DNA from: Chloroflexota bacterium
Lineage (GTDB): Bacteria; Chloroflexota; Dehalococcoidia; Lucifugimonadales; UBA3495
Assembly: GCA_022568195.1 (NCBI GenBank)
Contig: JADFFS010000031.1
Span: 1 to 25,090, forward strand
Reading direction: 5' to 3'
Length of the DNA: 25,090 nt
The position numbers were made by a program, and so were the translations under genes. Below are positions 6,160 to 18,667 of this stretch, piece after piece. The notes beneath the pieces were generated by a model. The model saw nothing but the letters and a program-made list of their open reading frames with translations. It had not been told where the DNA came from and searched no databases. Each line of letters starts with the position of its first letter. The first letter of the stretch is position 1.

Positions 6160-7497
6160 ATGAAAGTTCTGATCGTCGGTTCGGGAGGGCGGGAGCACGC
6201 CCTGGCCTGGCGGTTGCAGCAAAGCTCGGACCTAACCGGACTGTGGGTCGCCAGCGGCAACGCCGGCACCGCTGGAATCGCCACCAACATCGACGTTTCC
6301 CCCGATGACTTGGATGGTATATCTGCCGCCGCCCGGTCCCTGCGCATTGACCTGGTGGTGGTGGGCCCGGAGATACCCCTGGCCGCCGGGTTGGTCGACC
6401 GATTGGACTCTTTGGGGATACCCGCCTTCGGCCCCACCCAAGCAGCAGCCCAGATCGAGTCTAGCAAGAGCTTCGCCCTGGAAATCATGGAGGAAGCCGG
6501 CGTACCCTGCCCCCAGTTCCGGACTTTTCGGGATCAGCAACTTGCTTTGGATTTTCTGGGGTCCCATCAAGGTCCGGTGGTGGTCAAGGCCGACGGGTTA
6601 GCCGCTGGTAAAGGCGTCTTAATTTGCGACGACCGGGCTGCCGCGGTTTCGGCAGTCCAGGACTGCATGAGCCAACGGTTATACGGCGATGCAGGAGACA
6701 CCATTGTTATCCAAGAATTTCTGACCGGTCCGGAGCTCAGCGTCTTCGCGTTTACCGATGGCGAGCACCTTTCCCCCTTGGTGGCGGCATGCGATTACAA
6801 ACGGTTGGGTGAAGGCGACCATGGACCCAACACCGGCGGCATGGGCGGCTTCTCGCCTCCTGAATTCTGGACCGATGATCTGGCCATGGAAGTTGCCGAC
6901 CGCATTATGCAACCGGTTATCCAGGCCATGTCCCGCCGGGGTATGCCCTATCGGGGTGTGCTGTACGCAGGGCTGATGTTAACGGCCGAGGGTCCCAAGG
7001 TGCTGGAATTCAATTGCCGCTTTGGCGACCCCGAAGCCCAGATAGTCCTCCCCAGGCTGGCCAGCGATCCCTTGGAGCTGATGGCGGGCTGCGTCGAAGG
7101 CCGGTTGTCTGCGGTCCCGGTCCTTTGGGACGCGCAGGACTACGTGGGGATAGTAATGGTCTCCGGTGGGTACCCCGGCAATTACTCCGTGGGGTTCGAG
7201 ATCGCCGGGTTGGACGCCGGCTTGGATGCCAGGTTTAATAAGGAAGAAAGAGGCACGATCGTATTCCATGCCGGCACCCGCGTGGCCCCGGATTCGGACC
7301 AGCCAACGGTGGTTAGTAGCGGGGGGCGAGTGCTGACCGTGGTGGGCCGGGGCGGCTCCTTGGCGGAGGCGCGGGCAACGGCGTATCATAGGGTCGAGGA
7401 AATCAGCTTCCAAGGAGCTTACTACCGCACCGACATCGCTGCGGTGGAGGGCAGGTCAGCAGTATGGGTTCCGGGCCCAGCGACTCCGGCAGGATAG
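6160..7497 (+). CDS. purD: phosphoribosylamine--glycine ligase
   Basis: 445-aa ORF. It has the PurD N-terminus 'MKVLIVGSGGREHALAW' and an ATP-grasp core ('VVVKADGLAAGKGV'). Confidence 0.95.
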   Translation: MKVLIVGSGGREHALAWRLQQSSDLTGLWVASGNAGTAGIATNIDVSPDDLDGISAAARSLRIDLVVVGPEIPLAAGLVDRLDSLGIPAFGPTQAAAQIESSKSFALEIMEEAGVPCPQFRTFRDQQLALDFLGSHQGPVVVKADGLAAGKGVLICDDRAAAVSAVQDCMSQRLYGDAGDTIVIQEFLTGPELSVFAFTDGEHLSPLVAACDYKRLGEGDHGPNTGGMGGFSPPEFWTDDLAMEVADRIMQPVIQAMSRRGMPYRGVLYAGLMLTAEGPKVLEFNCRFGDPEAQIVLPRLASDPLELMAGCVEGRLSAVPVLWDAQDYVGIVMVSGGYPGNYSVGFEIAGLDAGLDARFNKEERGTIVFHAGTRVAPDSDQPTVVSSGGRVLTVVGRGGSLAEARATAYHRVEEISFQGAYYRTDIAAVEGRSAVWVPGPATPAG

Positions 7498-8060
7498 CGC
7501 TACAGGAAGCCTACCGGCAGGCGCTGGCCAGTGGGGTGCTGGATAGTTACAGAACGCGGCGCTGGCAGCGCGGTCCGGAGTTCGCAAGCTGGCTCACCCA
7601 GGACCAACTGGCTGTCCTGACCGAAGAGCAGGCCCTGGCCCTATATCGGGCATCAGGAGGCAGGCGAAGCCGCGAGTTCGGGAGCAACCCCATTGAGGAG
7701 ATACGCGACTCTGTGGATTTCCTTCTTTTCGACACCATAAAGCTGGAGGGCCGGTTCGACGAATGCGCTTCTGCCGGCGGCGGGTTTAAACTTGAGGGTG
7801 CGGGCAAGGAGTTTGTGTCGTATTTATTATGTCTCAAAGACCCGAACCTTTTCGCCCTTTGGAATCCCCATTCTGATAGGATTTTGCGGCGTATGGGGAT
7901 TTACCCCCGTGGCCTGGGGAAAGGTAACCTGGGGATGGCCTACATGGATATTCTGGAGGCGCTGCAGAGAGTGCGCCAACTAATGGGCTTGTCCGACTTC
8001 CGCGTGGTGGACGAATTTGCTTACGCGGTTACCCGGCCGGTCAAAGCTCTCGCGGGATAG
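7464..8060 (+). CDS. hypothetical protein
   Basis: 198-aa ORF preceded by GGAGGG. It overlaps the purD 3' end by 34 nt. I recognise no family. An uninterrupted ORF in a high-GC genome is only weak evidence. Confidence 0.35.
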   Translation: MGSGPSDSGRIALQEAYRQALASGVLDSYRTRRWQRGPEFASWLTQDQLAVLTEEQALALYRASGGRRSREFGSNPIEEIRDSVDFLLFDTIKLEGRFDECASAGGGFKLEGAGKEFVSYLLCLKDPNLFALWNPHSDRILRRMGIYPRGLGKGNLGMAYMDILEALQRVRQLMGLSDFRVVDEFAYAVTRPVKALAG

Positions 8061-8129: not shown

Positions 8130-8582
8130 ATGGCGTGGCAAGACACCCTGTTGGAATTGCGTGAAGAGTTGGCCGAAGCACGGGCTGACCGGCTCCAGCG
8201 CGCCTCGGAGGAAGCTGCCGAAATCGGCAAGCAGCGGGATGAGTTGACCCAACTAGCCGCCTCCCTTGGCATTTCCGATGTGCTGTCTGACATGAACCGC
8301 ACCCTACTGGATGGCAAGGGAGAGCTCGAGACCATAGTGTCCTGGGAACCGGGAGAGCAGGACGACGATCCTTCCCCGGATGACGATGAAGACGAAGAAG
8401 AGGCCGACGGCATTTCGGCTTTTCTAACCTGGGAAGAGGGTGAGGAGAGAGAGATAGCGGTGGACTTGGGATTGGCCGAAGATGGGATCTACCTCCAGGT
8501 AAACGGCGTGGACATACGCCGGGAACGAGAGGCGTTGGAGGTGGCCCTGATAGAAGCCTTTCGGGATGAGCTGGATATTTAA
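8130..8582 (+). CDS. hypothetical acidic protein (D/E-rich central segment)
   Basis: 150-aa ORF with the SD 'GGAGAGG' 6 nt upstream. It contains a striking poly-acidic run 'EQDDDPSPDDDEDEEEADG'. I recognise no family. Confidence 0.45.
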   Translation: MAWQDTLLELREELAEARADRLQRASEEAAEIGKQRDELTQLAASLGISDVLSDMNRTLLDGKGELETIVSWEPGEQDDDPSPDDDEDEEEADGISAFLTWEEGEEREIAVDLGLAEDGIYLQVNGVDIRREREALEVALIEAFRDELDI

Positions 8583-8620
8583 CCCGGATTTTAACGTAGA
8601 ACTCCGATGAGGAAGTTGCC

Positions 8621-9079
8621 TTGCCGTTAGTGGGTGTTATCATGGGAAGCGCCAGCGATGAGCCGGTGGTCCAAGAAACGGTTGATACCCTGGAGCAGCT
8701 GAACATCGACTACGAGGTCCGGGTTATGTCGGCCCACCGGACCCCGGAGAAGGTCCAGGAATATGCCACCACAGCCCGGGACCGTGGCATTGAGGTGTTG
8801 ATTGCCGCCGCTGGAGGGTCGGCTGCTCTGGGGGGCGTCCTGGCCTCATGGTGCACCCTGCCCGTAATCGGCATACCCCTGGCGTCCAGCGAGCTGAAGG
8901 GTATTGACGCACTGTTGGCCACGGCCCAGATGCCACCGGGAATACCCGTGGCCTGCATGGCCGTGGGGGTATGGGGCGCCCGCAACGCAGCTTTCTTCGC
9001 CGCGGAGATCCTGGGACTCAAACACGAAAGCATAAGGGAATCTTATGAGGAGTACCGGCGCCAACTCCGGGAGCGCTAG
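8621..9079 (+). CDS. purE: N5-carboxyaminoimidazole ribonucleotide mutase
   Basis: 152-aa ORF carrying the PurE signature 'VGVIMGSASD' and 'RVMSAHRTPE...AGGSAALGGV'. It uses a TTG/GTG start region preceded by GAGGAAG. Confidence 0.9.
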   Translation: MPLVGVIMGSASDEPVVQETVDTLEQLNIDYEVRVMSAHRTPEKVQEYATTARDRGIEVLIAAAGGSAALGGVLASWCTLPVIGIPLASSELKGIDALLATAQMPPGIPVACMAVGVWGARNAAFFAAEILGLKHESIRESYEEYRRQLRER

Positions 9080-9818
9080 CCACTCGCCGGCGGTGCTTAC
9101 GGACTTCGACGACACCGCCGCCGTGGAAAATGTGGCGGAGCTTCTCTTAACCCGGTTCGGCGACCCAACGTGGCACGACGTTCGCAGCCGGTTTCGCGCC
9201 GGCGAGTTGACCCTAAACGACTACCAGGAGATTACCTTCCGCAACATCCAGGCCGACCGGGAAACCATGCAAGGTTATGTCAAAGAACACGCCCACCTGA
9301 GGCCCTATTTCAAGGAGCTGCAGGGCTACTGCGCGGACCACGGGATTCCCCTGGCCATAGTCAGCCAGGGACTGGATTTTTACATCGAAGCCTTGCTGGA
9401 CAAAGAGGGGGTTTCCCATGTGCCGGTCCACGCGGTCAATACCCACTTTACCGGCCAGGGCATTGCCTACGAGTACCGCTACGCTCGCCCAGGCCAAGAA
9501 CGCCTGGGTAACTCCAAAGGGCTGGTGGTGGAGGGCTACAAGGACAGAGGCCATCAGGTAATCTACGTGGGCGACGGGATGTCCGACTTCGAGGCCGCCA
9601 CCAAGGCGGACCTGCTTTTCGCCCACCGGGTCCTGGCGGAAGAGTGCCAGCGGCGCCAGATTCCCTACCGGCCATTTAAAGACTTCCGGGACGTTCTTTC
9701 AGCCCTGCAAGAGTTGTCCCAGGACGGATACGTTGACGGGCACGGCCCGTCCGACGAAGGTCATGCGCCAACCGGCCCGTTGGCCTATCCCGGAAAAGGT
9801 GAGGATGAGGAGCCGTGA
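9045..9818 (+). CDS. HAD-superfamily hydrolase (PSP/MtnX-like subfamily IB)
   Basis: The nucleophile motif 'VLTDFDDT' and the C-terminal motif 'YVGDGMSDFEAATKADLLFA' are typical of HAD phosphatases. The real start is probably the GTG at ~9093 (V17) rather than 9045. The stop overlaps the purB start (GTGA). Confidence 0.6.
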   Translation: MRSTGANSGSASHSPAVLTDFDDTAAVENVAELLLTRFGDPTWHDVRSRFRAGELTLNDYQEITFRNIQADRETMQGYVKEHAHLRPYFKELQGYCADHGIPLAIVSQGLDFYIEALLDKEGVSHVPVHAVNTHFTGQGIAYEYRYARPGQERLGNSKGLVVEGYKDRGHQVIYVGDGMSDFEAATKADLLFAHRVLAEECQRRQIPYRPFKDFRDVLSALQELSQDGYVDGHGPSDEGHAPTGPLAYPGKGEDEEP

Positions 9819-11125
9819 TAGACCGTTACTCTAGGCCTGCCATGAAGCGGGTCTGGTCAGAGGAAAACAAATGCCAGAAATGGCTTGAGGTGGAGTTGGC
9901 CGTCTGCGAGGCCTGGACCGAAGAGGGCGTTATCCCCTTGGAGGACATGGTCCTGTTGCGCTCGGCTAAATACAACCACCAGAGAATGACGGAGATCCTG
10001 GTCACCGTGCGCCACGAGACCAACGCTTTCCTCACCTCCATCACCGAGCAGATCGGGCCCGAGGGGCGCTGGCTCCACCTGGGGCTGACCTCCTCGGACA
10101 AGTTGGATACCGCCATGGGACTGCAATTTGTGGAGGCCGGCGACCTGCTGCTCCAGGACATGGATGAAGCCATCGAAGCCCTGCGCGGCCAGGCGGTGCG
10201 GCATAAAGACACCATCATGATGGGGCGCACCCATGGGGTTCACGCCGAGCCGATAACCTTTGGCCTCAAGGTTGCCCTGTGGTGGGAGGAGCTCCGGCGA
10301 CAGCGCGCCCGGCTGGTGGAAGCCTTGGCTACGGTACGCGTCGGCAAAATCTCCGGCGCCGTGGGCACCCACGCCACAGTCCCTCCCTCGGTTGAGGACA
10401 GGGTGTGCCAGCGGCTGGGCCTGGATGTAGCCACCGTGTCCAACCAGGTGGTGCAGCGGGACCGCCACGCCCATTTCATCCTGACCCTGGCCCTCATCGC
10501 GGCGTCTTTGGAGAAGTTCGCTACGGAAATTCGCTCCCTGCAGCGCACCGAAATCCACGAGCTGGAGGAGCCCTTTGACGAAGGGCAGAAGGGCTCTTCC
10601 TCCATGCCCCACAAGCGAAACCCAGAGTTGTCCGAGCGCATCTGCGGGCTAGCCCGCTTGGTCAGGGGCCACAGCGTAACGGCCTTGGAGAACGTGGCTC
10701 TCTGGGGAGAGAGGGACATCAGCCACTCCTCCGCCGAGAGAATCATAATTCCCGACGCTTGCCTGGCCGTGGACTACATCCTGAGCATCTTCACCCGTGT
10801 CATCAAGGACCTGCGGGTGTACCCAGAGCGGATGTGGGCCAACATCGAGAGCAGCCTGGGGCTAATCTTTAGCCAGCGAGTTCTGTTGGCCTTGGTGGAC
10901 AAAGGGATGGCTCGCGAGGACGCCTACCAGATCGTCCAGCGCAACGCTGCCCTGGGGTGGGACAACCACGAGGACTTCCGGCAGCTTCTCAAATCCGACG
11001 CCGAAGCCACGGCGTACCTTTCAGTCGAGGAGCTTGAAGAGCTCTTTGACTACAGTTACTACACGCGTTACGTCGACGACACATTTCAACGCTTGGGGCT
11101 GTTGCCAGCCAAGGTAGCAGTATAA
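9815..11125 (+). CDS. purB: adenylosuccinate lyase
   Basis: 436-aa ORF with the PurB N-terminus 'RYSRPAMKRVWSEENK', the fumarate-lyase signature 'GSSSMPHKRNP', and a GTG start preceded by GAGGAG. Confidence 0.95.
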   Translation: MIDRYSRPAMKRVWSEENKCQKWLEVELAVCEAWTEEGVIPLEDMVLLRSAKYNHQRMTEILVTVRHETNAFLTSITEQIGPEGRWLHLGLTSSDKLDTAMGLQFVEAGDLLLQDMDEAIEALRGQAVRHKDTIMMGRTHGVHAEPITFGLKVALWWEELRRQRARLVEALATVRVGKISGAVGTHATVPPSVEDRVCQRLGLDVATVSNQVVQRDRHAHFILTLALIAASLEKFATEIRSLQRTEIHELEEPFDEGQKGSSSMPHKRNPELSERICGLARLVRGHSVTALENVALWGERDISHSSAERIIIPDACLAVDYILSIFTRVIKDLRVYPERMWANIESSLGLIFSQRVLLALVDKGMAREDAYQIVQRNAALGWDNHEDFRQLLKSDAEATAYLSVEELEELFDYSYYTRYVDDTFQRLGLLPAKVAV

Positions 11126-11140
11126 AGAGCCCTAACCGTC

Positions 11141-11160
11141 ACACCGGCTTTAGCCGGTGT
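11141..11160 (+). terminator. candidate intrinsic terminator hairpin downstream of purB (8-bp perfect stem ACACCGGC/GCCGGTGT, loop TTTA, no U-tract)
   Basis: The inverted repeat is seen directly 16 nt after the purB stop. The missing U-tract lowers confidence. Confidence 0.25.
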
Positions 11161-11309
11161 CCAGGCACGAAGACCATGCAAACGTTCCATAAATTCCGGC
11201 CTTCGCCGGAACGACGAAATCTTAACTAATACATTATCGAGTAACGGCAGGGGTGAAGTGAGACTCCTCGTATCTATTAAATGTCTCACTGAGGGAGGGG
11301 ACCGAGCGA

Positions 11310-12206
11310 ATGTTGATTGAAACGCAGCTTCCCGATTTGCTACACCGGGGCAAGGTCCGGGACACCTATCAGATCGATGCAGATTTGCTGCTCATGGTGA
11401 CCACCGACCGAATCTCGGCATTTGACGTGGTCTTGCCCACGGGCATTCCTGAAAAAGGCCGGATTTTGAATAAAATGTCCGGATTCTGGTTTGACAAAAC
11501 CAAGCACTTAATCCCCAATCACCTGGTTGCTTTGGCCGACGATCCGGACGTGGCCGGCAAGTTCAGCGACAGCGAGCTAATGAGAAACCTGCCGACGCAA
11601 GTGGCGCGTCAGGCGATGATCGTCAAAAAAGCGGAGCGAATAGACATCGAGTGCGTGGTCCGGGGCTATATCACCGGCTCAGCATGGTCCGAGTACCAGA
11701 AGCAGGGAACGGTATCGGGCCAAAGAATGCCGTCGGGAATGGTGGAGGGCGACGCTTTCCCGGAACCGTTGTTCACCCCCACCACCAAAGCAGAGCAAGG
11801 CCACGACGAGAACATGACCGCCGATGAAGTGATTGCCATTGCCGGCGCCGATCTGGCCCGGCAGTTGGAGGAGGTCACCAAGACCGTGTACCGTTTCGGC
11901 CACGATTACGCCCGAGAGCGAGGTATCGTGCTGGCCGACACCAAATTGGAGTTCGGCCTGCTTCACGGCGAGTTGATTCTCATCGACGAGCTTTTTACCC
12001 CGGATTCCAGCCGTTTCTGGGACATGGACGGCTTCAATCCGGGCCGGTCTCAGCCCAGCTTCGACAAACAGATCGTCCGAGATTGGCTCATTGAACAGGG
12101 GTGGGACCGGGAGCCGCCGGCTCCCGAGCTTCCCCCGGACATCGTCGCCAGGACCTCGGAACGCTATCTAGAGGCCTACCGCCGCCTTACCGGCGCGGGC
12201 CTGTAA
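11310..12206 (+). CDS. purC: phosphoribosylaminoimidazole-succinocarboxamide synthase (long form)
   Basis: 298-aa ORF with 'GKVRDTY...DRISAFD' SAICAR synthetase motifs and a strong SD 'GAGGGAGGGG'. Confidence 0.95.
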   Translation: MLIETQLPDLLHRGKVRDTYQIDADLLLMVTTDRISAFDVVLPTGIPEKGRILNKMSGFWFDKTKHLIPNHLVALADDPDVAGKFSDSELMRNLPTQVARQAMIVKKAERIDIECVVRGYITGSAWSEYQKQGTVSGQRMPSGMVEGDAFPEPLFTPTTKAEQGHDENMTADEVIAIAGADLARQLEEVTKTVYRFGHDYARERGIVLADTKLEFGLLHGELILIDELFTPDSSRFWDMDGFNPGRSQPSFDKQIVRDWLIEQGWDREPPAPELPPDIVARTSERYLEAYRRLTGAGL

Positions 12207-12221
12207 TCGGAGGTACCTACA

Positions 12222-12881
12222 TTGCCCGTGTCAAAACACCGCCGGAGCCGTGGCCGAGCCTCTCAGCGAGGGGAGCGCCCTGCGGCAGACCTATCGATTC
12301 CCAAGCCTAAGAAGAAGAAAACCAACAAGCTGTACGTGGCGGCCTCAGCTATCATCGCCGTGCTGGTCATAGGCGGATTTGCCATAGGCGGCACCAATTT
12401 CCAGCGTGGCGCCCAGACGGGCAGGAGCCAGGAGTACGTCGAAGGAGTGGGGGTACGACAAGATTTCATGCCCGTGGGTCCCAGGGGCCTTAACGCTCAC
12501 GTCCCCAGAAACCAGACGGTTTCCTACAACACAAATCCGCCTACATCCGGGGACCACTGGTCCACACCGGAGAGATGCGGCTTTTTCGAGGACGGCTTGA
12601 CCGACGAGCGTATCGTGCACAACCTGGAGCACGGCAACATCGTGGTCAGCTACAATCTGGCCACCCCCGAAGAAGTCGACCAGCTCGAGGACGCCGTGGG
12701 CAGCATAGGCCTGAATCCAGTCTGGGGGGTTACCCGTTTTTACGACAAGATCCCTGCGGGAACGGTGAGCGTGGCCGCTTGGGGCGTTCTGGACCAAATG
12801 GACGGCGTCGACAGGGAGAGGATTAACCGGTTTTTCGAAACCTACGCGGGCAGCCTGGGCCCGGAAACCATCATCTGCTAG
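12222..12881 (+). CDS. membrane-anchored DUF3105-like protein
   Basis: 219-aa ORF with a basic N-terminus (KPKKKK), one TM helix ('LYVAASAIIAVLVIGGFAIGG'), then a domain carrying a 'HNLEHGNIV' motif. This resembles what I recall of DUF3105 proteins. The assignment is from memory and was not searched. Confidence 0.45.
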   Translation: MPVSKHRRSRGRASQRGERPAADLSIPKPKKKKTNKLYVAASAIIAVLVIGGFAIGGTNFQRGAQTGRSQEYVEGVGVRQDFMPVGPRGLNAHVPRNQTVSYNTNPPTSGDHWSTPERCGFFEDGLTDERIVHNLEHGNIVVSYNLATPEEVDQLEDAVGSIGLNPVWGVTRFYDKIPAGTVSVAAWGVLDQMDGVDRERINRFFETYAGSLGPETIIC

Positions 12882-12943
12882 GGCCGCCAGGGTCAGATGA
12901 ACCGTTAAGCTTCCTATCGTCCTTATCCTTCCGTATCCTTATC

Positions 12944-12974
12944 CTGCCGTGGGGATATACCAACTCGACGGCAG
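12944..12974 (+). terminator. candidate terminator hairpin downstream of the DUF3105-like gene (7-bp stem CTGCCGT/ACGGCAG)
   Basis: The inverted repeat is seen in the 150-nt gap before purS. It is followed by 'CCGCCGTTTAG'. Confidence 0.2.
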
Positions 12975-13032
12975 CCGCCGTTTAGCCCGGTAACCACACA
13001 AACCCGGGCATCAACTACCCTATCTTTGCGGG

Positions 13033-13290
13033 GTGTGTCCATTGTACCTGGCCAAGGTGTACGTGACCCTCAAACCCACGGTCAACGACCCTCAAGGGCG
13101 GACGGTGTTGGCTACCTTGCACAACCTGGGCATCAACGCCGCGGCGGACGTCCGAGTAGGCAAGTACCTCGAGGTCAAGGTCGAAGGTGAGGACCGTTCC
13201 CAGGCGGAAGCTCTGGTCAATGAAATGTGTGAAAAGCTGCTGGCCAACCCGGTCATTGAAGAGTATCGTTTCGACTTGGAGAGACTATAG
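13033..13290 (+). CDS. purS: phosphoribosylformylglycinamidine synthase subunit PurS
   Basis: About 80-aa PurS-like sequence ('VYVTLKPTVNDPQGRTV...LGI..AADVRVGKYLEVKVEGE...EMCEKLLANPVIEEYRFDL'). The likely start is the GTG at ~13066. No purQ or purL is adjacent. Confidence 0.85.
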   Translation: MCPLYLAKVYVTLKPTVNDPQGRTVLATLHNLGINAAADVRVGKYLEVKVEGEDRSQAEALVNEMCEKLLANPVIEEYRFDLERL

Positions 13291-13325
13291 CCTGATAGCT
13301 GACGACTGATAGCTGATAGCTCAAA
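13291..13325. repeat. short tandem direct repeats of CTGATAGCTGA in the purS / BNR-protein intergenic spacer
   Basis: 'CCTGATAGCTGACGACTGATAGCTGATAGCTCA' carries three copies of TGATAGCTGA-like units between the purS stop and the SD of the next gene. Confidence 0.5.
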
Positions 13326-13339
13326 CAGAGGGAAGCACA

Positions 13340-14335
13340 ATGACTTCAGGGACTAACAACACCTACGTGTACGTGGGGGCCGAAGCCACCGGCCTGTACC
13401 GATTGTCACCCGGTTCGGACCGGTGGGAAGAGCTTACCAACGGCCTGCCCCAGGACCCGGTGGTCCCCGGCGTAGCCCTGCACCCAGACGATCCCGAGGT
13501 AGTCTTCGCGGGTACTCAAGACGGCCCCTACCGCAGCACCGACCGGGGCAATCATTGGGAACGGCTGGACTATCCCAGAAGCGGCGCTCCGGTGTGGTCC
13601 TTCCTTTTTCGGCCCGGTGACCCCACCACCATGTACCTTGGAACCGCGCCGGGAGAGATTTACCGCAGCGTCAACGCCGGCGACTCATGGCAAAAGCTCA
13701 ACGCGAGCATGGGCTCCAACGAGTGCGCCATGGCCTTCCCGACCCGGGTGATTGCCCTGACCGCCGACCCCAGCTCTCCCGACGACGTTTACGCTGCCTT
13801 GGAGGTTGCCGGCGTCATTCGCAGCACCGACGGCGGCGACACCTGGGAAGAGATCACCGGCTCCCTGGCGCCCAGCGAGGGCACTCTGGACCTCCACGGC
13901 ATCCAGTGCAGCGCCGCGTCGCCCCACACCGTGTTCCTCACCACCCGGCAAGGTCCCTTCATCGGCCCCGACAAGGGGCGGGAGTGGATACCCGTGGAGT
14001 TCGGCAAGTTCTCCCCCATTGGCTACACCAGGGACCTAAGAGTGGCGCCCCATGACCCCAACACCCTGTATATATCCATCGGGGCGTCGGCTCGAAGCTC
14101 ACAGGGCGCGCTATATCGCAGCCGCGACCTGTTCCGCACCTTCGAAAGAGTGGACCGGGGTATAACGGCCAACGCCACCATGATGTCGGTATCGGTGGAC
14201 CCGCGTGCGCCCAGCCATATCTTCTGCAGCGCTAGGGACGGCCAGGTGTTCGGCACCTTGGATGATGGAGCCACCTGGACCACCTACGAGCTGCCAGATA
14301 AGGCTAAAGAGTTGCGCGCTCTGGCCGTGGGCTGA
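13340..14335 (+). CDS. BNR/Asp-box repeat beta-propeller protein (Ycf48-like/sialidase-like fold), cytoplasmic or secreted unknown
   Basis: 331-aa ORF with the SD AGAGGGAAG. It contains repeated S-x-D-x-G-x-T/S-W motifs: 'YRSTDRGNHW', 'YRSVNAGDSW', 'IRSTDGGDTW', 'TLDDGATW'. Confidence 0.7.
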   Translation: MTSGTNNTYVYVGAEATGLYRLSPGSDRWEELTNGLPQDPVVPGVALHPDDPEVVFAGTQDGPYRSTDRGNHWERLDYPRSGAPVWSFLFRPGDPTTMYLGTAPGEIYRSVNAGDSWQKLNASMGSNECAMAFPTRVIALTADPSSPDDVYAALEVAGVIRSTDGGDTWEEITGSLAPSEGTLDLHGIQCSAASPHTVFLTTRQGPFIGPDKGREWIPVEFGKFSPIGYTRDLRVAPHDPNTLYISIGASARSSQGALYRSRDLFRTFERVDRGITANATMMSVSVDPRAPSHIFCSARDGQVFGTLDDGATWTTYELPDKAKELRALAVG

Positions 14336-14383
14336 CCAGTTATAATTTGGGCGGCCGGCGTGGCCTAATGGAGGGATTCCTTC

Positions 14384-16801
14384 ATGCCCAACTGCCCAGG
14401 TTGTGGTAGACAGGTCCAGGCGGAGTGGCGGTTCTGCCGCACCTGCGGGCAGGCGCTGACTGAAGACGCGCCCTCCCAGACCACGTCCGTGGGCGACTTG
14501 GTTGCACCGGAATTCCTGGCCCGCCTCATACGCCTCGACGAGATGTCCGGTTTGCTGACCAAGACCCTTCAGATAGACGAAGGGCAGGCAGCCTTGCTTT
14601 TCCTGGGGGGCCGGCACGACGTGACCCTGGGTCCAGGCAGCCATTCCATAAGTGCCCTGTCCTCCCGAGGGCGAGACGCCAGTGTCGTCCTCTTCCGTAC
14701 CGCCGACGTGACTATGCCCCTGTCCGTCGCTGGACTATTTACCTCGGACCCGCTCCCGGTCACCCTGGACAGCCACCTGGTGGTCAAAGTCGAGCGGCCG
14801 CTGCTCCTGTGGACCAACCTGGCGGCCGGCGCCGATTCCTACACGACGCAGAATCTGGCCGGCTCCCTGTACCCTCTGGCGGAAGAGGGGTGCGAGGGCT
14901 TCTTCAAGACCCGCTCCATCAGGGATGTGGCGGCCGACAGTTCCTTGAGCCGCGACCTGCAACTGGCCCTGTCCTCCCAGTTGGACCAGCCCCTGAGCAG
15001 GTGGGGAATCCGCCTTGTATCGCTCCAAGGTGTGAGCATAAGCTGCCAGGCCTGGGATGAAGTCACAAAGTCGCGGACGGACTACTTCGTCACCGCCTCC
15101 GAGGAACGGGCCGGTCTGGAAGGGCGCAAACGCCTGTTCGACGTGTACCAGGAGTCCGAGCTCCAGACCATGGCTCAGGAGACGGCGGAGGTCGCCGCCG
15201 TGGAGAAGCGGGTCTCATTGTGGGCGCGGCTGCGGCAGGCCTTGCTGTCCAACGCGCGGGGCGAGCTCGAGTCTCAAGCAGAGATGGAAGACCTGGTGCG
15301 ACGCGGAGACAAGGACCGCCTGCTTAAAGACGATGAGCGGGACGCCTTGGTCCGGGCCATGGGTGAAGCCAAAGAGGACCACCATAAAGCCCGGATATTC
15401 GCCTTGCGCCGGGTGGAGTCGGAAGGTGAACACGAGCTCCAAAAGCTGGACCTATGGCACCGGTACGGTCTGGAGCAAGAGCGCCTGACCATGGAAATCT
15501 CGGCCGCTAGGGAAGAAATGGAGCGCCGGTGGGACATGGAGCTTCGTCGCCTGGGCGCGGAGATAGAGCAGCAACGCCGCCGCGAGAATTTCCGGCGGGA
15601 GCAGGAAACCGAAGAACTGGCCCTCAGGTCCCGTTCCCAGTTGGGGCAGGCTCGGACAGCTGCTTCCATAGCGGACTTGGAACGGGAACAGGACCGCGCC
15701 GACATGGAAATGGGGTTGGACATCTTAGACCGGTTAAAGCGTGAGCAAATCGACCGGGAGTGGCAGCAACGGCTCCATGCACTGGAGGAAGCCGAGAGGC
15801 AACTGAACATGGAGCTGGACGCCGAGTCGCAGCGGATGGAGATGCGGCTCAGAGAGGCCCGGGAAGAGCATGGCCATGAGATAACCCGCATACAGACCCT
15901 GTCCACCGCCGGCATCGAGACCCTGATCGCTGTGTCAGGGCCGGAACAAAGCCAGCTACTGGCTCAACTGGCACGAACCAGGGCCTTCGCCGGCTGCACT
16001 CCCGAAAAGATTCTGGCGATGCAGGCCGCCGATAGTCCCCAAGTCGCCGACGCCCTGAAAGAGATACTAACTGCCACCGCGGCCACCGGCCAGCTAGAGC
16101 AGTACGAGCGGTTGGTTACCCAACTCAAGGACAGCGCCCAAACCAGCCGGGAGGACTACCAGCACAACCTCACGGTCATGCACCAGATGTTCGACAAAGC
16201 CCTGGACAGCGTCAAGGAAACGGCCGTGGCCTTCTCCGCCGTCTCCGCTCCGGTGGCCCCCCCTCAGCCCGACCTGCGCTCCCACACCTCGCCCGACGGT
16301 ATCGTCACCCTGTTCTTTAGCGACATCGAAGGGTCCACAGCCATGACCGAGCGGTTGGGAGACCAACGGGCTCAGCAGGTGCTGCGAGACCACAACGAGA
16401 TCGTTCGCCTGCAAGTTGCCAACCACGACGGATTTGAGGTCAAGTCCATGGGGGACGGCTTCATGCTGGCTTTTTCCAGCGCCCGAAACGGCATCCGGTG
16501 CGCCATTGATGTCCAGCGGAACCTGGCTGTCTACAGCAACGAGCATCCCGAACAGCCACTGCGGGTGCGTATCGGAATCCACACCGGTGAGGCTATCAAA
16601 GAGTCCGAGGACTTCTTTGGCAGAAACGTCATCATGGCCGCCCGAATATCCTCCAAGGCCCAAGGCGGGCAGATCCTGGTTTCTTCCCTGGTGAAAGAGC
16701 TTACCGAGAGCTCCGGCGACATCCGATTTGACGATGGCCGGGAAGTGGAGCTGAAAGGGCTGGCGGGACTCACCAGAGTCCACGGGGTTGAGTGGGAGTA
16801 G
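14384..16801 (+). CDS. multidomain protein: N-terminal zinc ribbon, SPFH/flotillin-like (YdjI/COG4260-like) domain, ~350-aa E/R-rich coiled coil, and C-terminal class III adenylate/guanylate cyclase (CHD) domain
   Basis: 805-aa ORF with the SD GGAGGG. N-terminal 'CPGCG...CRTCG' zinc ribbon. SPFH-like strand motif 'LQIDEGQAALLFLGGRHDVTLGPGSH'. Long EA/ER-rich heptad region. C-terminal cyclase motifs 'VTLFFSDIEGSTAM' (metal Asp), 'EVKSMGDGFMLAF' (Lys plus second Asp) and 'GRNVIMAARIS' (Asn/Arg). Confidence 0.8.
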   Translation: MPNCPGCGRQVQAEWRFCRTCGQALTEDAPSQTTSVGDLVAPEFLARLIRLDEMSGLLTKTLQIDEGQAALLFLGGRHDVTLGPGSHSISALSSRGRDASVVLFRTADVTMPLSVAGLFTSDPLPVTLDSHLVVKVERPLLLWTNLAAGADSYTTQNLAGSLYPLAEEGCEGFFKTRSIRDVAADSSLSRDLQLALSSQLDQPLSRWGIRLVSLQGVSISCQAWDEVTKSRTDYFVTASEERAGLEGRKRLFDVYQESELQTMAQETAEVAAVEKRVSLWARLRQALLSNARGELESQAEMEDLVRRGDKDRLLKDDERDALVRAMGEAKEDHHKARIFALRRVESEGEHELQKLDLWHRYGLEQERLTMEISAAREEMERRWDMELRRLGAEIEQQRRRENFRREQETEELALRSRSQLGQARTAASIADLEREQDRADMEMGLDILDRLKREQIDREWQQRLHALEEAERQLNMELDAESQRMEMRLREAREEHGHEITRIQTLSTAGIETLIAVSGPEQSQLLAQLARTRAFAGCTPEKILAMQAADSPQVADALKEILTATAATGQLEQYERLVTQLKDSAQTSREDYQHNLTVMHQMFDKALDSVKETAVAFSAVSAPVAPPQPDLRSHTSPDGIVTLFFSDIEGSTAMTERLGDQRAQQVLRDHNEIVRLQVANHDGFEVKSMGDGFMLAFSSARNGIRCAIDVQRNLAVYSNEHPEQPLRVRIGIHTGEAIKESEDFFGRNVIMAARISSKAQGGQILVSSLVKELTESSGDIRFDDGREVELKGLAGLTRVHGVEWE

Positions 16802-17113
16802 CCCGGCTTGCTTGGAAACAGTCCATCTGCTAGGATTTGGAGGTTTCATACCAATACGACACATAAGTAGTAGAAAAATCCGCATCATTACTACACCGAG
16901 TAGGAATCCGTGCATCTTCAGCAGGCGGACGGTCTCATCGCAAAGACCGCCCCCAAGGCTGCAAGAGCCGCACGGCGATTCCCACGAGTTGGAATGAAGC
17001 CTCGAATATAGCAAAGTTAGCCGCCCTGTCGGGCGCAAGACCTCCGGGCGCACCCAAAGGACATCAGGTAGGCCGGTGCATGGTATCGGTTAACTGAAAC
17101 AAGGAGATGACTT

Positions 17114-18667
17114 ATGAGCACGCCCCGGGATCAAGCCGCCAGCGGCTCCTCCGATTCGGACGGAGACGGCTCCCTCCTTATAGCGGAAAGTATTCGCGTC
17201 CCCGACCTGCCGGGTCTGGTAAAGAAGACGGTGGTTCTGGGCACCGATGAGATTGGTTTTCTAACATCCAAGGGCAACGTTATCTCCAATCTAGGGTCCG
17301 GGACACATAGAGTTGGATGGTCCTTCCTTGGTTGGGGGGCAGGTGGGCGGGAGGTGATGCGAGTGCACAACCGCCCTTTCCGGTTGCGGCTTTCCTACAC
17401 CAGCCTTCTCTCCAAGGGATACGAGACCCTGGACGCACTCATTCACGTCACGGCCTCTGTAACGGTGCCGTCCCTCTTCTACACCACGGTGTTGCGAGGC
17501 CAAGGCCGTACCTACACATCCCGGTTGGCCTCGACCATCGCCGCCAGCGTCGACGACCTGATCCAAGTGAAGGTCGCCGAGACCGACGGGCAGGCTCTAC
17601 GTCACGATCAGGATACCCAGCAAAAGATGATTACGGAACTGGAACCACATCTAAGCCGGGCCATGAGCGAGCGAGGGCTCCAACTGGAGAGCGTGGACCT
17701 GTTAGCCTTCCAGAATCCGGGTGAGAGCGAAGAGCTTCTGGACGAGTTGGAAGAGGCGGAACGGATGATCGCCTCGGGAGTTAAACCCGGCCGGGAGGAT
17801 ACCCAGCGGGTACTCAACCGGCTGCGCACAGCGGGTCTGGCCACACCCGAGATGGCGGAGAGGGCCAACTTGCTGTTTGATGGAGGTACCGACGAAGCCT
17901 TCTTCGCTGTACTGCGGGACATCAGCCGGTCAGCCCGGCGGCGGCTGGAAACCCAGGTGGCCGACCGCTCGGAACGCTTAACTCAGATGATGGACGGTCA
18001 GAGTTCCTCGGGTTCTCGCAGAGGCATTCCCGGCATGGAGCATGTGTTCAAATTTGTCGGCCCCATCTGCGGGGTAGCGGGCCTGATCTACAAAGTGATA
18101 CCCGACCTGCTCTTCGGCTGGTATGCTCTGGCCGGTGGATTGGCCGCTGGCGCACTGTTTATTCTTGGATACCTTCTGGTCCGGGCCAAGCGCCTTCTCG
18201 GCATACGGCGGCAGGACGAGATCGTGATTCGCCTGGACCGGTGGGCCAAACGTGACAGCATGGCCACCGACGACCTGATCCGCCGACAGATGGGCAGGGA
18301 GTTTTCCAACAGCTTGGCCGACGTTAAAGACGCCAAACTAGCTGCCTTCCGGCAAGATAAGAAATCCGTGGCCGACTCCCTGACCGACGTGGAAAACCGG
18401 ATGGACCTGATACGCACCGAGGTAGAGTCGGCGCCGGCCGCTTCCACCATCGTGTCGACCAAGAACTTTCCCACCCGGCGCATCGTCCGCATGGTGACCT
18501 TCGAAGAGGATCTGCTGCGCCAGGCGCGAAACCTGTCCATCAGGGCCCAAACAGCCAAGACATCTCTGGACGACGAAGACGTAGCAGCTTTGAGCACCGG
18601 CCTGCACCATTTCCAGCGGACTTTCTCCAAGCGGCTCGGTCTATTGGAAGGGTTCCGGGACCTGTAG
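17114..18667 (+). CDS. SPFH/flotillin-like paralog with internal transmembrane hairpin
   Basis: 517-aa ORF with the SD AGGAG. N-terminal 'KKTVVLGTDEIGFLTSKGNVISNLGSGTHRV' mirrors the SPFH-like starts of the neighbouring genes. Hydrophobic segment 'FVGPICGVAGLIYKVIPDLLFGWYALAGGLAAGALFILGYLLV'. Acidic and charged helical regions. Confidence 0.6.
   Translation: MSTPRDQAASGSSDSDGDGSLLIAESIRVPDLPGLVKKTVVLGTDEIGFLTSKGNVISNLGSGTHRVGWSFLGWGAGGREVMRVHNRPFRLRLSYTSLLSKGYETLDALIHVTASVTVPSLFYTTVLRGQGRTYTSRLASTIAASVDDLIQVKVAETDGQALRHDQDTQQKMITELEPHLSRAMSERGLQLESVDLLAFQNPGESEELLDELEEAERMIASGVKPGREDTQRVLNRLRTAGLATPEMAERANLLFDGGTDEAFFAVLRDISRSARRRLETQVADRSERLTQMMDGQSSSGSRRGIPGMEHVFKFVGPICGVAGLIYKVIPDLLFGWYALAGGLAAGALFILGYLLVRAKRLLGIRRQDEIVIRLDRWAKRDSMATDDLIRRQMGREFSNSLADVKDAKLAAFRQDKKSVADSLTDVENRMDLIRTEVESAPAASTIVSTKNFPTRRIVRMVTFEEDLLRQARNLSIRAQTAKTSLDDEDVAALSTGLHHFQRTFSKRLGLLEGFRDL

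Follow-up and report, generated by a model that had tools for sequence, protein, structure and literature searches.

RESULTS

Genes of the locus

The window, by which we mean the whole 25,090-nucleotide stretch of Chloroflexota DNA analysed here, carries three genes for SPFH-type proteins, A, B, and C, on its forward strand. They lie between two genes for beta-propeller proteins, and two genes of an E2-E1-JAB cassette follow on the reverse strand; the E2 gene of this locus falls beyond the window end. The features are as follows:

13340..14335, + strand: BNR/Sortilin-type beta-propeller gene directly upstream of A (Pfam Sortilin-Vps10/BNR; tblastn map)
14384..16801, + strand: gene A, 805-aa Zn-ribbon/SPFH/helical protein with a predicted class III adenylyl cyclase (ORF, Pfam, homolog clusters, AF2 model)
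14387..14458, + strand: N-terminal C4 zinc ribbon of A, aa 2-25, with C4, C7, C18, and C21 (weak Pfam, invariant Cys)
14516..15043, + strand: SPFH (Band 7) alpha/beta domain of A, aa about 45-220
15047..16234, + strand: E/R-rich helical region of A, aa 222-617, homologous over its length to paralog C (AF2, BLASTP)
16235..16300, + strand: Pro-rich flexible linker of A with conserved PDL..PDG lead-in to the catalytic core, aa 618-639 (AF2, alignment)
16301..16792, + strand: class III cyclase catalytic domain of A, aa 640-803 (D647, D691, K687, D743, R754; Ile750; invariant N748)
17114..18667, + strand: gene B, 517-aa SPFH-fold protein with a hydrophobic helical hairpin and a C-terminal helical bundle (hydropathy, AF2, Foldseek)
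18722..20671, + strand: gene C, 649-aa paralog of A with a C-terminal zinc ribbon (aa 621-641) replacing the cyclase (BLASTP, Pfam)
20718..22310, + strand: single-pass membrane protein with a cytoplasmic N-module of ~105 aa, a TM segment, a P/T-rich linker, and a BNR propeller (translation, hydropathy)
22710..23522, - strand: JAB/JAMM isopeptidase with a C-terminal RWD/UEV-like tail (Pfam Prok-JAB; PADLOC JAB, 94 bits)
23761..24999, - strand: E1-like (ThiF/MoeB-fold) adenylyltransferase (Pfam ThiF, 118 bits; PADLOC E1-E2, 143 bits)

The flanks consist of housekeeping genes (pgk, apgM, guaA, and the pur operon). As the pur operon is likewise syntenic in SAR202, part of the conservation of this neighborhood could be plain synteny. 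A mobile or viral origin was rejected on the basis of these flanks and because no relatives were found on IMG/VR viral contigs. Related loci mark the site as an insertion hotspot, with an SMC-like ATPase gene in L001 and a transposase gene in L002. The upstream propeller gene is variable, being found in L001, L007, and L019 and missing from L002. The N-module of the single-pass protein has no Pfam match; it is conserved and recurs on other triad-adjoining genes in many loci. Promoter and terminator scans of the window stayed at background level, Rfam gave no matches in it, and Pfam and PADLOC detected no effector-type or cNMP-sensing domain and no cNMP receptor among its genes.

Gene A joins an SPFH scaffold to a cyclase

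The first-pass annotation of this DNA had described gene A as a zinc ribbon, an SPFH domain, a coiled coil, and a cyclase in one polypeptide. The domains and their order stand, with reservations about the coiled coil. The Pfam matches of the product are Band_7 and Guanylate_cyc, the architecture and fold of all domains are supported by Pfam and the AF2 model, and the arrangement is shared by some 30 homolog clusters. At the N-terminus, several zinc-ribbon Pfam models match weakly, every one below cut-off, and the four Cys residues are invariant in 24 homologs. SPFH proteins typically have an N-terminal membrane anchor; in gene A the zinc ribbon occupies that position, and hydropathy analysis found no membrane segment (no 19-residue window with KD >1.5). 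The domain that follows belongs to the SPFH/Band 7 superfamily by both profile and fold.

The fusion is rare. The scaffold family comprises 1,124 representatives at E<=1e-3, and an SPFH-cyclase fusion occurs in 3 of the best 149 of these. Gene A is named "hypothetical protein" by NCBI and "class 3 adenylate cyclase" by JGI, neither name conveying the fusion, and no description of an SPFH protein fused to a class III cyclase appeared in the literature searched. The architecture is as unusual as the first reading supposed, and it is unannotated. We regard it as confirmed that the joining of an SPFH/flotillin-like scaffold to an enzyme predicted to make cAMP is real in SAR202-type marine Chloroflexota.

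The "~350-aa coiled coil" of the earlier description corresponds to long helices, though to about 395 aa of them in at least six segments, of which the longest measure 68, 58, and 88 aa. The region is rich in Glu (17%) and Arg (14.5%). AF2 places helices at residues 222-289, 333-361, 365-422, and 430-517 with pLDDT 80-90, and models the amphipathic stretch 520-617 with low confidence. In a crude Fourier test, heptad (3.5-residue) periodicity across residues 222-517 did not rise above shuffles (z -0.6); the sole positive stretch was 520-617 (z 3.5). On this crude test, most of the helical region of gene A lacks support as a canonical coiled coil, and we did not retain that assignment. Residues 602-632 have pLDDT <50, and the QPDLRSHTSPDG stretch of the linker aligns with the N-terminal segment of the full-length cyclase Ma1120 (4wp3). 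Since the cyclase is attached through a flexible Pro-rich linker and not a continuous coiled coil, proximity or tethering is favored over rigid helical signal transmission, which is unlikely.

Predicted activity of the cyclase domain

By fold and profile, the C-terminal domain matches the class III nucleotidyl cyclases (PF00211), and five of the six canonical catalytic residues are present, bearing out the first-pass assignment. Both metal-binding Asp residues, D647 and D691, are retained (in 22/24 and 21/24 homologs, respectively), as is the substrate pair K687/D743 (23/24 and 24/24), which aligns with K101/D157 of Ma1120. The transition-state Arg, R754, is invariant in the 24 homologs and aligns with Ma1120 R168. 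The sixth residue, the canonical transition-state Asn four positions before the Arg, is absent, its site being occupied by Ile750 in 24/24 homologs. The Asn of the "GRN" motif is a different residue: it is N748, invariant but six residues before R754.

Ma1120, with Ala164 at the Asn position, is an active adenylyl cyclase (AC) whose activity is lost once that Ala is changed to Asn (PMC4215837). Ile750 is therefore no argument that gene A is inactive. The two proteins have the same GRNV.MAAR motif, and Rv1900c, an adenylyl cyclase, has His aligned at the canonical Asn position. Rv1900c is catalytically active. By the earlier criterion, under which substitution of the metal Asp, the Asn, or the Arg would mark a pseudo-cyclase, the Asn site would count against gene A; the active Ma1120, however, is substituted there too, and the Asp and Arg residues of gene A are intact. 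The alignment of K687/D743 with K101/D157 predicts adenylyl, not guanylyl or pyrimidine, specificity. This agrees with the purine substrate suggested earlier from the Lys of EVKSMGDG, and the partner residue D743, to which the choice between AC and guanylyl cyclase had been deferred, points to AC. Sequence comparison thus predicts that the cyclase is catalytically competent and, as a member of the Ma1120 subtype, specific for ATP, from which it would form cAMP. In the clade P0025/27/30 the second metal Asp is lost while triad and cassette are retained, so cyclase activity is dispensable for the role of the module.

Genes B and C

The hydrophobic hairpin of gene B (aa about 305-361, then RAKRLLG) is kept in 10 orthologs, and we consider B the candidate membrane anchor of the assembly. 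In a Foldseek search, its AF2 model matched HflK/C, stomatin, erlin, QmcA, flotillin, and prohibitin (prob 1.0, with E values as low as 1.5e-6). The scaffold profile, searched against PDB sequences, gave marginal stomatin matches only (E about 0.1), so a comparison of folds was required. Gene C is 31% identical to gene A over 598 aa (BLASTP, E 3e-80), with Pfam matches to Band_7 (23.8 bits) and DZR. The zinc ribbons of A and C lie at opposite ends of the two proteins, neither of which has a membrane segment, and the hydrophobic hairpin occurs in B only.

In SAR202 loci gene B always follows gene A, and the order A-B-C is kept, at one chromosomal position behind the pur operon, in every locus with enough sequence, over a range of 50-100% identity. 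The A-B gap is unconserved (313 bp in the window, 67 bp in L005). In three loci (L015, L032, and L033) the A-like cyclase has neither B nor C beside it; the cyclase can therefore occur outside the triad. In two of them, L032 and L033, the cyclase gene is adjoined by genes for a cNMP_binding-HisKA_3-HATPase kinase and a LuxR-type response regulator.

The E2-E1-JAB cassette

The PDB matches of the E1-like protein are MoeB, ThiF, UBA5, and Cap2. Against family-level defense models the scores are low: the JAB protein reaches 37 bits with NCBIfam Cap3 (cut-off 200), and 6A-MBL cap2_3 scores 46-58 bits (cut-off 320). An E2 gene (PF26395, Pfam E2-CBASS) follows E1 in L002, L005, L015, L017, L029, and L031-33. 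An A-type gene has E2/E1/JAB genes no more than 10 kb away in the window and in L001, L002, L005/6, L015, L017, L029, L031, L032, and L033. Three placements occur: downstream and convergent, upstream and co-directional, and in one operon. The opposite strand carries the cassette in most loci; the one in L031 runs the same way as the A-type gene, with gaps of 27-143 bp. The flanks differ among cassette-bearing lineages (SpoIIM in L015, a rib operon in L031, T2SSE/kinase in L032/33).

The reverse test gave the same association: 4/4 newly examined E1 relatives (>=41% full-length identity) adjoin an A-type SPFH gene. The distant E1 relatives in L035 and L036 have no SPFH neighbors, which makes the association clade-specific and not universal. 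Within the flanks available, L022 has the triad without the cassette, and in L034 a related E2-JAB-E1 cassette stands beside a Band_7-CHAT protease fusion. No conserved Ubl-sized ORF or Ubl Pfam match was found by the E2/E1/JAB genes of the window, L005, L015, L031, or L032; a cryptic fused beta-grasp domain may be present. The combination of A-type SPFH genes with E2-E1-JAB was not found described in the literature searched.

At one point the cassette appeared to track the cyclase domain (cyclase-bearing 6/6, cyclase-less 0/5). This was overturned by L031 and L029, whose A-type genes lack the cyclase and are accompanied by E2-E1-JAB; the link is therefore to the A-type scaffold clade. Cyclase-less A-type proteins are P0038/39 and those of L022, L029, and L031, and the A-type proteins of L031 and L022 fall outside the cyclase-bearing crown in 200/200 bootstraps. 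A secondary loss of the cyclase in P0038/39, seen in the first NJ tree, is unsupported (nested in 25/200 bootstraps, outside in 113/200). The cyclase is a later addition to the module, as basal A-type lineages without it already share an operon with E2-E1-JAB, which still adjoins the cyclase-bearing genes; in the A-type lineage the cassette is older than the cyclase. Other odd or cyclase-less sequences, P0028, P0034, P0037, P0042 (SBP_bac_5), and P0043, proved to be frameshifted or chimeric gene calls.

DISCUSSION

Relation to known systems

The closest solved homolog of the gene A cyclase is Ma1120 of Mycobacterium avium (PDB 4wp3, 4wp8, 5d0e). Ma1120 is a small stand-alone cyclase and Rv1900c/LipJ a cyclase fused to a lipase; in contrast, the gene A domain forms the C-terminus of an SPFH scaffold protein of 805 aa, with Ile at the Asn position where Ma1120 has Ala. 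In Rv1625c/Cya and the receptor guanylyl cyclases, helices likewise precede a dimerizing catalytic domain (coiled-coil/CTE coupling), whereas gene A has a Pro-rich linker of ~22 aa and mostly no heptad signal. To the SPFH cage pairs (HflK/HflC, flotillin-1/2, prohibitin-1/2, erlin-1/2, stomatin, QmcA) the sequence similarity is marginal (E about 0.1). Unlike them, A and C have zinc ribbons and no N-terminal anchor, the hairpin of B follows the SPFH domain, the helices extend over a far greater length (about 400 aa), an enzymatic output domain is present on one member, and an FtsH or NfeD partner is absent.

The locus resembles type II CBASS in having a nucleotide cyclase gene by E2, E1, and JAB genes, in its E2, which falls in E2-CBASS, and in that no separate Ubl gene was detected. 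It differs in that the cyclase is class III and not a CD-NTase (PADLOC gave no CD-NTase match), E2 and E1 are separate genes and not a fused Cap2, no NCBIfam score comes near its cut-off, an effector gene was not found, gene A lacks a free flexible C-terminal tail, and the cassette predates the cyclase. Pycsar pairs a PycC pyrimidine cyclase with a cNMP-binding effector, a combination that the window locus does not contain. As in Bil and Bub operons, E1, E2, and a JAB-type peptidase are encoded separately (PMC11601603); no Ubl gene, however, was found in any of the loci, and the partners here are SPFH proteins, which the literature searched does not report for Bil or Bub.

Proposed mechanism

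We favor, at a probability of about one half, a reading of the gene A locus as a scaffold-tethered, proximity-activated cAMP signaling module. Through the Pro-rich linker the cyclase would be held at the C-terminus of a divergent SPFH scaffold, and by analogy with the HflK/HflC, flotillin-1/2, prohibitin-1/2, and erlin-1/2 pairs, A, B, and C would most likely form a hetero-oligomeric ring or cage attached to the membrane. Class III cyclases are active as dimers only, so the local concentration of the catalytic domains, and how they pair, would depend on scaffold assembly or rearrangement, and cAMP synthesis would be switched accordingly. The known rings and cages of SPFH relatives make such a switch plausible. 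In the sister lineages L032 and L033 the cAMP may be read by the adjoining cNMP-binding histidine kinase and LuxR-type response regulator, which would make transcriptional signaling the output.

Several observations count against this mechanism: A and C are without an N-terminal anchor, the heptad signal is missing from most of the helical region, Ile750 replaces the Asn, and no cNMP receptor is seen in the window. The A-like cyclases of L015, L032, and L033 without B or C, the loss of the second metal Asp in P0025/27/30, and the synteny of the pur operon weigh on the same side.

A wide range of sensor domains is known for class III cyclases, and in eukaryotes the organization of membrane signaling is ascribed to SPFH proteins (flotillin, stomatin, prohibitin, HflK/C); to our knowledge, direct enzymatic outputs are rarely hard-wired to SPFH proteins. 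A cAMP signal would offer a simple readout for what SPFH assemblies sense and for how assembly state becomes signal. If functional, the link between SPFH proteins and the cassette would extend bacterial ubiquitin-like conjugation past CBASS, Bil, and Bub to membrane scaffolds. SAR202 are abundant deep-ocean Chloroflexota in which we know of almost no experimentally characterized signaling, and the triad module is a conserved, chromosomally fixed feature of theirs.

Alternative explanations

A defense role is a live rival for the triad locus, if an improbable one. In such an anti-phage or conflict system, similar to CBASS or Pycsar, SPFH proteins would sense infection or membrane damage, the cyclase would raise a cyclic-nucleotide alarm, and E2/E1/JAB would prime or restrain it, acting as Cap2/Cap3 do on CD-NTases; the effector would be B or an unlinked protein. 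The matches of E2 to E2-CBASS and of E1 and JAB to PADLOC CBASS-derived models (and, weakly, to NCBIfam Cap3 and 6A-MBL cap2_3) are consistent with this, as are the insertions of an SMC-like ATPase and a transposase at the hotspot and a weak PycC match of the cyclase (29.8 bits, PADLOC). So is the Band_7-CHAT protease neighbor of the related cassette, a CHAT protease fusion being a typical conflict-system effector. However, the vertical conservation of the triad at a single site behind the pur operon is unlike patchy defense islands, and no relatives were found on viral contigs; PADLOC does not include a model for the SPFH proteins, neither a recognizable effector nor a Ubl gene was found, and the K-D pair points to ordinary cAMP and not a pyrimidine cNMP. 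Moreover, gene A ends ...V-x-W-x right after its last beta-strand, with neither a flexible tail nor a conserved terminal Gly, so CBASS-like conjugation of its own C-terminus is unlikely. The kinase and response regulator of L032/33 suggest regulation over abortive infection.

Two further alternatives keep the scaffold and remove the switch. The cyclase might be constitutive, with the SPFH protein merely localizing cAMP to a membrane microdomain and the cassette an unrelated neighbor retained by synteny. The equally syntenic pur operon, the mostly opposite strand of the cassette, the more distant E1 relatives without SPFH genes, and the cassette-free triad in the available flanks of L022 all fit, but the cassette adjoins A-type genes across three arrangements and differing flanks, and in L031 it is co-directional, with gaps of 27-143 bp; we judge this account unlikely. 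Still harder to credit is a pseudo-enzyme, in which the domain would bind nucleotide or dimerize and gene A would be purely structural. Ile750 in all homologs, the sub-clade without a metal Asp, and the cyclase-less A-types (P0038/39, L022, and L031), whose scaffold evidently works without the domain, argue for it. Against it, the window protein and 21-24/24 relatives have kept the metal Asp residues, the K-D pair, and the Arg, which indicates purifying selection on these catalytic residues; Ma1120 is active with Ala at the Asn site and damaged by A164N, the adenylyl cyclase Rv1900c has His there, and a cNMP-binding kinase adjoins the sister-lineage genes.

A broader and tentative reading, which we think doubtful, takes the loci as a bacterial class of membrane scaffold not described so far: multi-paralog SPFH rings or cages with zinc ribbons, together with single-pass N-module proteins and functionally coupled to a Ubl-less E2-E1-JAB cassette, would sense envelope damage or infection and respond through interchangeable output domains, the cyclase here and the CHAT protease in L034. 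If this surveillance reading were true, the cyclase fusion would be the second-messenger output of the scaffold.

Domain architecture of A

The ORF listing of the window places the 805-aa reading frame of A, with its ATG start, exactly at 14384 to 16801 on the forward strand. Pfam finds a Guanylate_cyc domain (aa 640 to 792; 77.8 bits) and a Band_7/SPFH domain (aa 63 to 215; 35 bits, above the 23.6-bit cut-off), and several zinc-ribbon models match aa 2 to 25, every one under its own cut-off. We take this N-terminal ribbon as real because none of its cysteines, C4, C7, C18 and C21, varies across 24 full-length homologs. The AlphaFold2 model, computed from the alignment of these 24 sequences (mean pLDDT 71), shows an alpha/beta SPFH domain (aa 45 to 220), helices spanning aa 222 to 617 (the longest being 222 to 289, 365 to 422 and 430 to 517; pLDDT 80 to 90), a Pro-rich, low-confidence segment at aa ~602 to 632, and a confident cyclase fold at aa 640 to 803. 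The Pfam matches, the invariant cysteines and the model thus bear out the first-pass annotation of zinc ribbon, SPFH domain, helices and C-terminal cyclase in one ORF. Its ~350-aa coiled coil stands only as a long helical region: this is E/R-rich, ~395 aa long and broken into several segments, and a crude Fourier test detected heptad periodicity only for aa 520 to 617 (z 3.5), the signal over aa 222 to 517 not exceeding that of shuffles (z -0.6). Also differing from that description, scaffold and enzyme are joined by a flexible linker and not by an unbroken helix.

Catalytic site of A

The cyclase motifs quoted in the first-pass annotation lie at aa 645-652, 685-692 and 741-756. Among PDB sequences, phmmer matches the cyclase best to Ma1120 of M. 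avium (E 1.2e-47) and then to Rv1900c/LipJ (2.8e-19); the enzyme part of A adds a member to the Ma1120/Rv1900c-like group of class III cyclases. Residue roles were assigned from the phmmer alignment and the Ma1120 mutagenesis paper (PMC4215837). Alignment of the six canonical residues, the check proposed for A, recovered both metal aspartates (D647, D691), the substrate pair K687 and D743 (Ma1120 K101 and D157), which predicts ATP as substrate, and the transition-state arginine R754 (Ma1120 R168). Four residues ahead of this Arg, where the canonical Asn is expected, A has Ile750; the Asn of the "GRN" motif (N748) is two residues out of register. Ma1120 itself has Ala164 at this position, yet is an active adenylyl cyclase, and the A164N change costs activity (PMC4215837). 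D743, N748, I750 and R754 are each conserved in 24/24 homologs, K687 in 23/24, D647 in 22/24 and D691 in 21/24. By homology, A most likely works as an adenylyl cyclase.

In the three most divergent of the 24 homologs (P0025, P0027 and P0030; loci L005 474-2900 and L006 445-2871), Gly replaces D691, the second metal Asp, so that "KSMGDGF" becomes "SM[RNI]GGF". These cyclases are probably inactive, and probably represent a natural pseudo-cyclase lineage. Despite the lost metal Asp, B, C and the adjacent E2-E1-JAB genes are all kept beside them.

The triad and the E2-E1-JAB cassette

The window holds the following features:

Left half: housekeeping genes apgM, pgk, polyprenyl synthase, tsaC, guaA, purD, purE, HAD gene, purB, purC, DUF3105, purS
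17114-18667: B, after A
18722-20671: C, after B
20718-22310: downstream BNR gene (530-aa protein), with a cytoplasmic N-module of ~105 aa at 20718-21032
22710-23522, reverse strand: JAB gene
23761-24999, reverse strand: E1 gene

C and A are paralogs, alignable over ~600 aa at 31% identity (E 3e-80), and where A bears the cyclase C has a C-terminal zinc ribbon. B matches no Pfam family; its model has the SPFH fold, with Foldseek matches to HflK/C, stomatin, erlin, QmcA, flotillin and prohibitin (prob 1.0, E to 1.5e-6). A hydrophobic helical hairpin in B, followed by RAKRLLG, is kept in all orthologs. The B C-terminal helical bundle (aa 384-516) is confidently modelled, and the motif "...LLEGF(K/R)(D/E)L" is conserved in 29 orthologs to the last, invariant Leu. 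Every SAR202-type locus whose sequence reaches far enough shows A-B-C synteny.

The E2 of the window's cassette lies beyond the window end; at loci with A-type genes (the scaffold clade of A, with or without cyclase) it is PF26395, "E2-CBASS". The cassette is downstream and convergent in L001, L002 and L005/6 (129 bp from C in L005/6), and upstream and co-directional in L017. In L031 a cyclase-less A-type gene, B, C and then E2-E1-JAB lie on one strand with gaps of 27-143 bp. The cassette accompanies an A-like cyclase with no B or C in L032 and L033, a distant cyclase-bearing relative in L015 (again with no B or C, and a different upstream gene), and the cyclase-less P0039 clade in L029. It is absent from the available flanks of the cyclase-less Anaerolineae loci L009, L010, L012 and L013, and of L022. 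In a reverse test from the window E1, all four newly examined relatives (>=41% full-length identity) adjoin an A-type SPFH gene, as do none of three more distant, partial matches. Two of these have TPR/MoxR or kinase/FHA surroundings. The third, L034, adjoins a Band_7-CHAT protease fusion, an SPFH scaffold fused to a protease and not to a cyclase; the order there (8242-17621) is related E2-JAB-E1, CHAT protease, Band_7(SPFH)-CHAT fusion, Pepco-domain protein and Band_7 protein.

The cassette matches neither Cap2/Cap3 nor Bil nor any NCBIfam family at the equivalog level, and no Ubl gene was found with it. At its C-terminus the JAB protein carries an RWD/UEV-like tail ("GDYPVSPPEV"). The E2 N-terminus is cysteine-rich with several CxxC pairs (E2 at L005 8980-10062 and L015 5866-7035, both reverse strand); in L015 it gives one double-zinc-ribbon match below threshold (DZR, 21.5 bits vs GA 27.3).

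Distribution and order of events

A word-indexed search returned ~30 full-length clusters joining Band_7 to Guanylate_cyc (50-100% identity), nearly all from marine metagenomes; one, named from "SAR202 cluster bacterium Io17-Chloro-G7", is labelled hypothetical protein. Several odd-looking architectures in the first match list were rejected as frameshifts or chimeras. Among 185,579 GTDB species representatives there are 8 loci only, in Chloroflexota except for one Geobacteraceae, and no relative was found on viral contigs. An exhaustive HMM search with the scaffold alone gave 1,124 representatives (355 with E<=1e-30). Within the top 149, only P0015, the fragment P0152 and the distant P0167 carry a cyclase, and the usual order of domains is (Zn ribbon)-SPFH-helices-(Zn ribbon), the ribbon being N-terminal in 82, C-terminal in 117 and at both ends in 72. 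The literature searched yielded no description of an SPFH-cyclase architecture, and cyclases come up nowhere in a 2009 survey of SPFH proteins from prokaryotes.

An NJ analysis of the scaffold region with 200 bootstrap replicates recovers the C-type proteins as a single clade in 197/200 and, for the most part, the A-type proteins too (157/200). A crown of all cyclase-bearing proteins plus P0038/39, which have no settled place inside it, leaves out the cyclase-less L031_A and L022_A in 200/200. The A/C duplication and the E2-E1-JAB link are therefore older than the cyclase, which was joined to the A paralog at its C-terminus.

Proposed mechanism and alternatives

To our knowledge, all solved SPFH relatives form membrane-attached rings or cages. 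A, B and C, among which B alone has a membrane segment, may likewise co-assemble into such a structure, whose assembly or rearrangement would control how the tethered cyclase domains pair and, through that, the synthesis of cAMP. The cAMP would feed transcriptional regulation, and the cassette would modify the scaffold or be recruited by it. We give this composite reading a probability of about 0.5. At L032 (12075-16701) and L033 (4093-8796) the distant A-like SPFH-cyclase gene lies in divergent orientation beside genes for a cNMP_binding-HisKA_3-HATPase_c histidine kinase and a response regulator of LuxR/GerE type; the two are candidates for a two-component system that senses cAMP.

The literature names three known families of bacterial E1/E2 operons (PMC11601603): type II CBASS, Bil and Bub. 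None of them is reported to involve SPFH proteins, unlike the locus here. Its likeness to type II CBASS is limited to a cyclase near E2/E1/JAB, and it lacks the features that define CBASS. Tentatively, the SPFH-E2/E1/JAB module could be a system of a new kind. The E2/E1/JAB and CHAT parallels would suit a CBASS/Pycsar-like defence role, but the fixed chromosomal synteny, an ordinary ATP-type site and the failure to find an effector make it rather doubtful. It is unlikely that the scaffold merely localises a constitutive enzyme beside an unrelated cassette. A pseudo-cyclase in A itself, for which Ile750 might speak, is improbable beside the intact metal, substrate and arginine positions.

Variation around the triad

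BNR/Sortilin-type propeller genes lie on both sides of the triad in the window and vary in other loci. The ~105-aa N-module, which has no Pfam match, recurs on other membrane proteins beside the triad at many loci. A TM helix follows it, and the extracellular parts vary: a BNR propeller or, in other loci, PPC or Cu-binding-like domains. As a set, these genes resemble a repertoire of receptor type that is attached to the SPFH cluster.

Table. Copies of the N-module at other loci
L001: 16765-17124
L002: 16514-17053
L003: 525-815, 2896-3201
L005: 10228-10542
L011: 3529-3888, 5169-5627
L017: 8401-8829
L028: 3 copies
L031: 762-1292, 12077-12625

The locus is an insertion hotspot: L001 (6979-9652) has gained two genes between BNR and A, one of 62 aa and one for an SMC_N/AAA_23 ATPase of 827 aa, and L002 (17410-18524) has a DDE_3 transposase and an HTH gene between C and JAB. 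GC in the window falls to 0.53-0.54 at 21001-23000, against 0.59-0.63 in most other parts (one further 1-kb bin, 11-12 kb, has 0.55); the dip takes in the 3' part of the BNR gene, 400 bp of intergenic DNA and the JAB gene. The DUF3105 gene (12222-12881) lies between purC and purS, as in L001 and L002, and a 198-aa ORF with no Pfam match (7464-8060) between purD and purE. Instead of the cassette, Anaerolineae SPFH pairs have Ser/Thr kinases beside them. In L009 (3988-16998) and L013 (4030-18135) the pair is a B-like and a Zn-ribbon-SPFH-helical protein, and the genes flanking it include, in both, a Pkinase-FGE-sulfatase fusion.
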